A stretch of 64,000 bases of DNA from Euglena gracilis (lineage: Eukaryota): contig CP154954.1 in assembly GCA_039621445.1 (NCBI GenBank), forward strand, positions 25,866,954 through 25,930,953, written 5' to 3'. Of the stretch, positions 6,401 to 8,962 are shown in pieces. The first letter of the stretch is position 1. Every line of letters starts with the position of its first letter. The notes beneath the pieces were generated by a model that saw nothing but the letters and a program-made list of their open reading frames with translations, searched no databases and had not been told where the DNA came from. The translations under genes and the position numbers were made by a program.

Positions 6401-8962
6401 AACAAGTTAAAAAATTTGCCAGGGAAAAAACAAGTCAAATCAATAATAAACAAAAATAAGAATTTTGCCGTGTTATTATTGAAATTCTAACCATAAGTTG
6501 TGAAGTTAAGTTGGTTTCATTATTGTGGTGTATTTTCAGTCTTTCCCCCCACCCACCCCACCGCGATGGGGTGGGGGGTGGTCGACCCCCCCCTCCACCC
6601 ACCACCCATGGGATTCCTGTACAGCCCTGGGGGGTCCGCAGCTGGGGAGCTGCTGGCCGGAAGAAAGGTGCTGGGAGGCTGGACCCCCCCCAGGCCCGGG
6701 GTTGCAGGAGAAAACCCGGCTTAAGAAACTTCCTGAGGCGGAGCCAGCGACTGTGTAAGCTACAGCATGGATCAGCAGGTGTTTTCGAAAGCGGCTTAAA
6801 AGTCCTAAAAGCCTTCAACGCTTCGTTCCCCTGGCCAAAACGGCTGAATGTGTATTTTTCTGGGGGCGCCAATTTTTAGGTCAAAATTTTCCTTGAGTTC
6901 TTTCGGTGCCAAAGGAATTTTTCTTTTGTCTGTGCCGGGAGGTGGGGAGGGGGGGGTCGACCCCCCCCCCAAGTTTTCCCATGCATCCCTTGGCCCCTCC
7001 AGGTGTCCAGTAGTAATAAAGTTTTTGCAGCCCGGCAAAGCCGGGCTGGACCAAAAAAAGGAGTCAAAAATTGCCAAAAATACATATGGGTGGGTATTTT
7101 TGGGTTCCAACCCAAAAATTTTGGCTAAAAAGAAGTTCAACCCAGCTGGGATTTAGGCTTTTTTTACCTGCTTCAGGTGCCGCTGAGTCCAGCCCAGCAG
7201 CCGGTTGGACCCCCCCTCTGGGTGGGTGCGTCATTACCCTTGATTGGCCCCGTCAGGGGAGGACCCCCCCCCTGGCCCACAGGTGCCGAGCGAGGACATG
7301 GAGGTGACGCTGCCGCCCTGGATCCAGGAGTACGTCACCGCGACGGACGTCTACACCAACCTGTACAACACCGCCCAGCGTCTCTTCCAGCTGCAGGCGG
7401 AGAAGGCCGCGGGGAAGGACCTGCCGGGCGGCGTCTCCCTGCAGGAGCGGCTGCTGGGGGACGGCGGCCTGCCGGTGTGTGCGTGCGTGTGTGTGTGCGT
7501 GAGAGTGTGTGTGGGTGGGTGTGTGTGTGAGTGGAGGAGAGCGCGCGCGCGCGCGGGTGTGTGCGTGCGCGCGCGCGCTCGCGGTGTGGGATGTGTGTGT
7601 GTGCGTGTGTGTGTGTGTGTGTGTGTGTGTGTGTGTGTGTGTGTGTGTGTGTGTGTGTGTGTGGGTGTGTGTGTGTGTGTGTGTGTGTGTGTGTGTGTGT
7701 GTGTGTGTGTGTGTGTGTGTGTGTGTGTGTGCGTGTGTGTGGTGTGTGTGTGTGTGTGTGTGTGTGTGTGTGTGTGTGTGTGTGTGTGTGTGTGTGTGTG
7801 TGTGTGTGCGTGCGTGCGTGTGTGTGCATGTGTGTGTGTATTTGTGTGCGTGAGTGTTTGTGTATTTGTGTGTGTGTGTGTGGGTGGGTGGGTGGGTGGG
7901 TGGGTGGGTGGGTGGGTGGGGGGGTGGGTGGGTTGTACAATGGGCAGAGACACAGGGTCAAAATCAAAACGATTGGGGAAACCTGCCTGCGGCCAGGAGC
8001 AAGTGGTAACCAGCACTGCTTTCACCCATATCTTCGAAATTCTTTGTGTGTCCAGCAAACCACATCCAGCAGGCAGGTTGGAGGACCGCCTGACCCCAAC
8101 CATCCCCCATCAGACCCGGTAACCCGCCCTCGGCCCTCTCGCCCCACTCGGTCTGTCCGCAGCTCGCCAGCAGCCCGAACGGCTCGGCCGGTGGGCCGCA
8201 GCTGCGCCCCGCACTGGCGTCGGAGTTCGACTCCGTGGCTGACCTCGACGGGGAGGAGCAGGGTGGACCTGGAGCCCCCGGGAACACTACGGGGGGGGGG
8301 GGAGGGCAGAAATCTCTTTGATTTCAGTGACCCAGGGGGGGGGTTCACCTCTACCCCCTCCCTGGAGGCGGGGATGCTTTTTTTTCCAGCGCAAAGCACC
8401 GAAAAAAACCCAAATTTTGGGGTCAATTTGGCCCCCAAAAGCGAGTCCCCCCCGTGCCCAGGGTTTGATATAAGGAGGGCGTACATGGTTTAGGTGGGGG
8501 GGGGGTGTCCCCCCACCCCCCATCCTGCCCCGCAGCGGGGGGGTCCCGACCACCCTCCCACCTGTCCTTATATCAAACCCTGCCCGTGCCCTCTCACCCG
8601 TATCTTCTCCCCCACTAGCAGGAAGGAGGATGGCTGGGTCCGTCCCCCCTCCTTGGGCAGGGCTGTACACCCCCCACCAGGCTTTCTCGTATTTCCGGGG
8701 GTGCCAATTTTTAGGTCAAAATTTTATTCGGCGCCAAAGGAATTTTCTTTGCGTGGGTGCCATGGTGGGGGGGGGGGGTCCGACCACTTCCCATCCAGCC
8801 CTGCCCCTGGGTGCCAAAGGAAAGCCTCTGGGGAGGGGTCGGCCACAGCCCCCCCCCCCAAGGACATTCTCGTCCCACCCTGGGGAAGACAAGCGCAGCC
8901 TGTCCTCCGTCCAGTCCCCGACGGGCGAGCCCGGGCAGTGGACCCGAATGGGCAGCGGCTGA
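416..8962 (+). CDS. TRPL translocation defect 14 (TTD14)-like protein: AAA_28/NadR-type P-loop domain + CYTH-like domain; 5'-truncated by the window, multi-exon
   Basis: Manually joined in-frame exons: 416-511 ([32 protein letters not shown]), 1597-1627, 1818-1972 ([44 protein letters not shown]), 2293-2423 ([29 protein letters not shown]), 3961-4057, 4295-4370 (VRVRRQ..YTC), 4601-4680 ([17 protein letters not shown]), 5825-5935 ([16 protein letters not shown]), 7283-7474 (LPPWI), 8163-8255, 8888-8962 (TGA). The motifs [27 protein letters not shown] and RRCF.Y....F.LD.Y match my recollection of the TTD14 family; no database search was run. Confidence 0.85.
1628..1817 (+). other. Non-conventional (non-GT-AG) intron
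   Basis: GGC-CAGGGA ... TCCCTG-AGGGCC; removal restores [14 protein letters not shown]. Confidence 0.8.
3615..3941. repeat. (TATG)n/(CATG)n compound microsatellite
   Basis: Direct reading. Confidence 0.97.
4058..4294 (+). other. Non-conventional intron
   Basis: GGC-CCGCGCGCCGTCC ... GGACGGCGGGCGG-CCCGC (12/13 complementary); restores KNSSAENNQ. Contains an internal ~45-bp direct duplication (4088-4190). Confidence 0.8.
4371..4600 (+). other. Non-conventional intron
   Basis: GGGGGCAGCGGTGGGCAGTG pairs imperfectly with CACTGTCCCGCCCCGCTCCTCCC; restores [17 protein letters not shown]. Confidence 0.7.
4866..5737. mobile_element. Element related to the 58043 intron element, carrying a nested MITE
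   Basis: CTAGCTGGTGG..TTTT...CAGTGAC body; 3' end AGCAAAATGGCTAGCCAGTGGATCCCCGGGGTCCTTAGGCAGTAGCCTG closely resembles 58385-58443. Left boundary approximate. Confidence 0.6.
5352..5643. mobile_element. hAT-like MITE
   Basis: TIRs CAGGGGTTTTTTTA / TAAAAAAACCCCTG; perfect 8-bp TSD AGGGGGGT (5344-5351, 5644-5651); nested in another element. Confidence 0.85.
7475..7932. repeat. (GT)n / (GGGT)n microsatellite starting at a GT donor
   Basis: Direct reading. Confidence 0.95.
8256..8887 (+). other. Non-conventional intron with nested MITE
   Basis: GAG-CAGGGTGG ... CCACCCTG-GGGAA; flanking 8-mers GGGAGGAG / GGGAAGAC. Confidence 0.7.
8459..8582. mobile_element. hAT-like MITE (124 bp)
   Basis: Perfect 18-bp TIR CAGGGTTTGATATAAGGA; perfect 8-bp TSD CCCGTGCC (8451-8458, 8583-8590). 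Confidence 0.9.

Follow-up and report, generated by a model that had tools for sequence, protein, structure and literature searches.

A stretch of 64,000 nucleotides of Euglena gracilis DNA (contig CP154954.1, positions 25,866,954 to 25,930,953; the whole stretch is called the window) carries part of a gene for an AAA_28-domain protein, together with transposon-like elements that lie within and downstream of this gene. The element in focus is a 124-bp sequence in the last intron of the gene (E2, 8459..8582), and its relation to the nonconventional introns of euglenids is the subject of this text. A database search with the open reading frame (ORF) at 7244-7500 gave a single protein, P0003 (eukprot EG_transcript_6081, 575 aa, Pfam AAA_28, E 2.6e-34). 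The exon blocks of this protein are 100% identical to the window except for one residue in the last exon (tblastn), and the window is therefore nuclear DNA of E. gracilis. The part of the gene present here, on the plus strand at 416..8962, corresponds to residues 196-575 and consists of 11 exon blocks separated by 10 introns, with the stop codon at 8960-8962. The Pfam scan of the exons gave AAA_28 matches below threshold, on two exons only.

The introns were defined by enumerating all junctions compatible with the P0003 protein. Six of them are of the GT...AG type (512-1596, 1973-2292, 2424-3960, 4681-5824, 5936-7282 and 7475-8162), and four are nonconventional, at about 1628-1817, 4057-4293, 4368-4591 and 8256-8887. 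Intron 7 (4681..5824, plus strand), a conventional one, holds the 292-bp element E1, while the last, intron 10 (8256..8887, plus strand), is nonconventional and holds E2. The latter carries a CAG at +4..+6 and a CTG at -8..-6 and is followed by G; at the protein level, its slidable range is 8 nt. The sequence-only reading of this DNA had called E1, E2 and a third element, E3, intronic. The gene mapping bears this out for E1 and E2; E3 starts 1211 nt downstream of the stop codon, outside the mapped introns. All three thus occupy non-coding parts of a transcribed-gene region, and none of them is itself an intron between exons of the mapped mRNA.

E2 has no coding capacity and is bounded by a perfect 18-nt terminal inverted repeat (TIR), CAGGGTTTGATATAAGGA, which pairs with its exact reverse complement at 18 of 18 positions. 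Directly outside the TIRs stand two copies of an 8-bp target site duplication (TSD), CCCGTGCC, at 8451..8458 on the left and at 8583..8590 on the right. The ends and the duplications were read directly and were also recovered by a script scan; no strand is assigned to this or to any other of the elements. As RNA, E2 is predicted to form a hairpin of -80.1 kcal/mol (z -4.0), and equal stability was reached in none of 200 shuffles.

The remaining elements share this architecture. E1 (5352..5643) has a perfect 14-nt TIR, CAGGGGTTTTTTTA, and the TSD AGGGGGGT at 5344-5351 and 5644-5651. E3 (10173..11850) is a non-coding element of 1678 bp with a perfect TIR of 11 nt, CAGGGCGGTCC (17/25 overall), and the TSD ACACACAA at 10165-10172 and 11851-11858. 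Its right flank passes into an imperfect (AC)n tract, and for this reason its duplication carries the least weight and is the least informative among those of E1-E3. The element also contains two direct repeats of about 300 bp near its two ends (10348-10650 and 11454-11728, 75.7% identity), with a T-rich centre between them. A further element of 502 bp, E4 (31676..32177), was absent from the earlier reading; it has a perfect TIR of 16 nt, CAGGGTTGTATGGGAA, and the TSD ATTCACCC on both sides. The claim that E1, E2 and E3 possess CAG...CTG TIRs with exact 8-bp TSDs agrees with both the direct reading of the ends and the scan. Their description as three different families likewise stands at the sequence level: blastn of each element against the window gave no significant similarity among E1-E4 beyond G/C-run motifs, and E1, E3 and E4 occur there in one copy each.

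E2, on the other hand, has relatives in the window. A second copy (52085..52209) aligns with E2 over its full length, at 84.5% identity across 129 columns (blastn), and is flanked by GGGGGGGT and GGGGGGTG. It lies within an intron of a second plus-strand gene, between the exon blocks ending at 51360 and starting at about 52350. This gene, at about 39091-56397, comprises at least 15 exon blocks by tblastn with a ~70%-identical orthologue (P0004, 632 aa, no Pfam family) that stems from another transcriptome. Exact junctions derived from such an orthologue gave too many candidates, and only the tblastn exon blocks were kept. A probable third, longer relative at 31028..31364 was found by a relaxed scan; its right end aligns with that of E2, and its flanks, GCCATGCC and GCCTTGCC, are alike at 7/8 positions. 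The E2 family of the 64-kb window thus has three diverged members, the third of them probable, each with its own flanks. This supports the mobility proposed in the sequence-only reading, and the family shows the combination of properties by which MITEs (in full, miniature inverted-repeat transposable elements) are recognised: short length, lack of coding sequence, TIRs with TSDs, multiple copies and differing flanks.

The association of the CAG-starting TIRs with an 8-bp duplication exceeds what is expected by chance. The strict criteria demanded that the first 10 nt of the TIR pair with at most one mismatch and that the TSD be exactly 8 bp. The scan of the window under these criteria returned four matches, namely E1, E2, E3 and E4, and 30 first-order Markov shuffles returned none in each case. 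Relaxed matches numbered nine, against a shuffle mean of 1.33 (40 across the 30 shuffles); among them, with flanks alike at 7/8, are 58043-58443 (repeat 19/25), 19776-20079, 58516-59881 and 14809-15958 (weak). The length of the flanking repeat was determined for 12 non-extendable pairs of perfect 10-nt TIRs starting with CAG: it was 0 nt in five, 1 nt in four and exactly 8 nt in three. The 5352 element (E1), whose TIR extends one base by chance, was kept apart from this count. Of 77 CAGGG..CCCTG pairs with a TIR of at least 10/14, four had flanks identical at 8/8; when the flanks of the same pairs were shifted 8 nt outward, identity of 7/8 or better was found in none. Pairs built on nine other pentamers gave a flank identity of 7/8 in one of 786 cases. 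Since the flanking repeats are either at most 1 nt or exactly 8, and the controls are negative, the length of the duplication is specifically 8, and it is exact at 8/8 positions in all four elements.

The same ends recur in the introns of the host gene. The core of intron 10 (8259-8882) is a 624-bp CAGGGTGG...CCACCCTG element, and the length of the intron, 632, equals 624 + 8. The flanks of this core, GGGAGGAG and GGGAAGAC, are alike at 6/8 positions and represent a decayed TSD, so intron 10 is probably an older example of the same class as E2. Intron 2 (1628..1817, plus strand) reads N3-CAG (1631)...CTG (1809-1811)-N6, followed by G, with the core start CAGGGATAG; its flanks are now unlike (3/8). 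Inside intron 10 lies a possible further nested unit, CAGGGCTG...CAGCCCTG (8658-8803), with flanks TCCTTGGG and CCCCTGGG alike at 6/8. A module of this unit, TTCGGCGCCAAAGG, recurs at 6857-6962 in intron 8 (74.5% identity, 106 columns). The CAGGG start is common to E1-E4, the 52085 copy, the 8658-8803 candidate and the two intron cores (introns 2 and 10).

Two further motifs accumulate within the elements or close to them. The palindromic TTCGGCGCCRAAGG has nine matches versus 1.47 expected, and G7-T-C6-A-C6 has 14 versus 0.03. The positions of the two are 5470, 6902, 8727, 10288, 13711, 18895 and 31172, and 5428-5621, 6950, 8501, 31714-32153 and 52124. Possible roles of these motifs are those of a subterminal module common to the elements or of a binding site for the transposase.

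The ends of the elements can be set against a code for nonconventional introns, 5'-N3CDG-/-CH'GN5-6|R, derived from knock-ins in E. gracilis (PMC12501133). According to the same work, splicing requires pairing after the CAG, and 50-bp introns of wholly synthetic sequence are spliced in this organism. E2 reads GCC as N3, then CAG, the 18-bp stem, CTG and CCCGT as N5, followed by G (8588). The unit whose excision the code predicts is therefore 8456..8587 on the plus strand, that is, 3 nt, the element and 5 nt (PMC12501133). E1 and E2 fit with N5 followed by a purine and E3 only with N6; E4 falls outside the code, with a pyrimidine at this place. The sequence-only reading had proposed that these elements carry the same terminal hairpin as nonconventional introns, and the correspondence with the N3-CAG/stem/CTG-N5 then R pattern (PMC12501133) supports it. 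The joints which that reading had predicted (8455^8588, 5348^5649 and 10169^11856) also coincide with those predicted by the code.

A MITE origin of nonconventional introns has been proposed since 2013 (PMC3935182), in a paper which also notes that, up to then, euglenids had yielded no identified transposable element. The proposal is still called unproven (PMC6221363 and the discussion of PMC12501133). The paper on the E. gracilis assembly assigns 4.60% of the genome to DNA elements, without family detail. The literature searched, supplements excluded, did not describe any free copies in Euglena that are flanked by 8-bp duplications, which is no proof of their absence, and it added nothing on Euglena transposon families. 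An 8-nt peak may already be visible in the published sliding-distance figure (PNAS) or in the intron tables of PMC4770533.

The elements described here are probably, at a probability of roughly 0.8, non-autonomous hAT-like DNA transposons of the MITE type of E. gracilis, the sort of element from which nonconventional introns arise. The proposed mechanism begins with the insertion of a CAGGG...CCCTG element, which would duplicate 8 bp of the target. The spacers of the splicing code, 3 and 5, add up to the length of this duplication. With one cut 3 nt ahead of CAG and the other 5 nt past CTG, the code would thus take out the element plus exactly one 8-nt duplication, and nonconventional splicing of an exonic copy would restore the mRNA as it was before the insertion. 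Nonconventional introns would then be the exonic copies of this class, and the copies found here would belong to the same class at places where splicing is unneeded. The result is support for an existing hypothesis and not a new kind of system.

Several observations weigh against this explanation. Introns 5 and 6 (4057-4293 and 4368-4591) have no CAG or CTG at the expected offsets and depart from the published code; the ends of intron 5 are GGCCCGCGCGC and GCGGGCGGCC. An element origin therefore does not explain every nonconventional intron. The sum of 3 and 5 is the arithmetic of the present analysis and was not seen stated in the passages of PMC12501133 drawn on here. The duplication of E3 lies within CA-rich sequence. 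Among metagenome contigs, a pattern scan for paired E2 TIRs gave 0 matches, as did a scan for a 22-nt internal word of E2. No transposase family matched above the thresholds used among 112 scanned ORFs of the window (12 from the first 15 kb and the 100 longest of 150 chosen beyond position 9000), and none of the scanned ORFs in or near the elements had a family match. Finally, the duplications AGGGGGGT, CCCGTGCC, ACACACAA and ATTCACCC, which are few sites, do not display the hAT target consensus.

Comparison with known systems shows where the elements agree with each of them and where they depart. Euglenid nonconventional introns (PMC12501133) share with them the CAG...CTG ends, the stem directly inside and, in E1 and E2, the cut flanks of 3 and 5 nt with a purine next. 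The similarity extends to the host gene itself, where CAGGG...CCCTG cores recur in introns 2 and 10. In contrast to such introns, E1, E2 and the 52085 relative are located inside introns and not between exons, and E3 follows the stop codon; the TSDs are intact in the elements and decayed in the introns. Introner elements of Micromonas, dinoflagellates and Amoebophrya are likewise DNA transposons with TIRs and TSDs that become introns, and their TSDs help to define the splice sites (PMC11282704). The difference is that introners are removed by the spliceosome at GT/AG-type sites (PMC11282704), whereas a non-spliceosomal euglenid pathway is concerned here. In the present case, moreover, two spacers account for the whole length of the TSD.

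Like the non-autonomous hAT elements and MITEs, for example maize Ds, the elements combine an 8-bp TSD, short CAGGG TIRs and no coding capacity, and they include several diverged copies at different sites, nested in other repeats. They differ in that a target consensus is not evident at the few sites available and no transposase appears among the window ORFs scanned. The 1678 bp of E3 exceed a typical MITE, and the elements are very rich in G/C runs instead of being AT-rich.

True twintrons are defined by an inner intron that breaks up some functional part of the outer intron and has to be removed first. Such arrangements, represented by the group II/III introns of Euglena plastids and by fungal stwintrons, resemble the present one in having one candidate excisable unit inside another. 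Intronic copies, above all E2, might accordingly be cut from the pre-mRNA as nested introns (8456-8587 for E2), either ahead of the host intron or independently of it. This idea adds to the transposon explanation and does not replace it, and on balance the odds are somewhat against it. E2 agrees with every published cis requirement, and synthetic 50-bp sequences with only these features are spliced in E. gracilis (PMC12501133). In the predicted fold of the whole host intron, the E2 hairpin forms on its own, and E1 fits the code as well. In the same fold (648 nt), the outer CAGGGTGG and CCACCCTG ends are unpaired with each other in the minimum-energy structure, from which no conclusion is drawn.

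However, intron 10 extends 203 nt beyond E2 on the 5' side and 305 nt on the 3' side, and the outer CAG (8259) and CTG (8880-8882) are uninterrupted. Because E2 leaves the outer signals intact, it does not form a strict twintron, in which splicing has to be sequential, and the mRNA would be the same either way. From its sequence, E2 is at most a nested, non-obligatory candidate intron. The removal of conventional introns is reported to precede that of nonconventional ones (PMC6221363), which makes a separate excision of E1 less likely, as its host is a GT-AG intron. A pyrimidine follows N5 in E3 and both N5 and N6 in E4. In the parts of PMC3935182 and PMC4770533 consulted, the word "twintron" appears only once, in a reference on plastid genomes. 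Unless backed by RNA data, the nested-intron idea is a secondary curiosity.

The assignment to a superfamily depends on the structure of the ends. Elements of the hAT superfamily have short TIRs with the terminus consensus YARNG, as at the Ac terminus, and their target consensus is nTnnnnAn; an 8-bp TSD and a CAGGG terminus occurring together are the classical mark of hAT elements. The sequence-only reading had called the elements hAT-type, and the 8-bp TSDs and CAG(GG) termini do fit this structure. CAGGG stands at both ends of E1-E4, the 52085 copy, the 8658-8803 candidate and the intron 2 and intron 10 cores; all 8 tabulated ends with CAGGG agree with YARNG. Nevertheless, because no transposase was seen among the scanned ORFs, the elements may be called hAT-like on structure only. 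The lack of a hAT transposase or a hAT dimerisation domain among those 112 ORFs, together with the apparent misfit of the four duplications to the target consensus, would also suit another superfamily with 8-bp duplications, for example a Mutator-like, a P-like or a Merlin-like one, or one with a transposase specific to euglenids. Given the fit of both the TSD and the termini to hAT, such an affiliation is unlikely.

An origin of the flanking repeats without any transposase is far less plausible. The repeats would in this case result from double-strand-break repair or from circles of excised intron RNA that inserted anew. In the gapC gene of E. agilis, a nonconventional intron of recent gain has eight-nucleotide direct repeats at its junctions, in which Milanowski et al. 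see a possible sign of double-strand-break repair (PMC4770533), and excised nonconventional introns have been reported as circles (reviewed in PMC11282704). A re-inserted circle, however, would bring along its old 8-mer, and each copy here has its own 8-mer on both sides. The repeat is exactly 8 across at least four unrelated sequences and abuts perfect CAGGG TIRs, which is the pattern of a staggered transposase cut. The free copies also give a simpler reading of the gapC repeats than double-strand-break repair does. The remaining alternative, chance matches in low-complexity G/C-rich sequence or an assembly artefact, draws on the abundance of G/C runs and microsatellites in the region and on the CA-rich flanks of E3, yet it is negligible in view of the empty strict scans of the shuffles, the negative shifted-flank and other-pentamer controls, and the presence of at least half of the words sampled from 4001-13000 in 14 DNA sequencing runs.

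Other repeats of the window stand beside the elements. Long microsatellites are located in intron 4 ((TGTA)n, 3614-3942), in intron 9 ((TG)n, 7592-7918), directly after E3 (imperfect (AC)n, 11851-12232), and at 16052-16407 and 19548-19752 ((GT)n and (AC)n). A tandem array at 32855-34745, with a unit of 77 bp, 24.6 copies and 95% matches, gives a ladder of near-identical ORFs of 76 aa. Two segments on the plus strand, 16706-16828 and 27584-27766, have similar conceptual translations, seen by eye in a codon-usage scan, which suggests a dispersed repeat with a coding remnant.

The origin of the nonconventional introns of euglenids and the machinery of their removal are open questions in the field. 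A broader and rather doubtful extension of the transposon explanation is that nonconventional splicing is an undoing of hAT-like insertions at the RNA level. Any transcribed CAGGG...CCCTG element would then be lost together with one 8-nt duplication, by cuts 3 nt ahead of and 5 nt past its ends; copies in introns or untranslated regions, E2 among them, would likewise leave as nested introns and be released as circles, and the pathway would neutralise this class of elements and might derive from its machinery. Independently of this extension, the intact non-exonic copies, whose TIRs are perfect and whose duplication is fixed at 8 bp, provide the free form that had been missing for the proposed ancestor. 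Such free copies make the hypothesis of the MITE origin of nonconventional introns directly testable.

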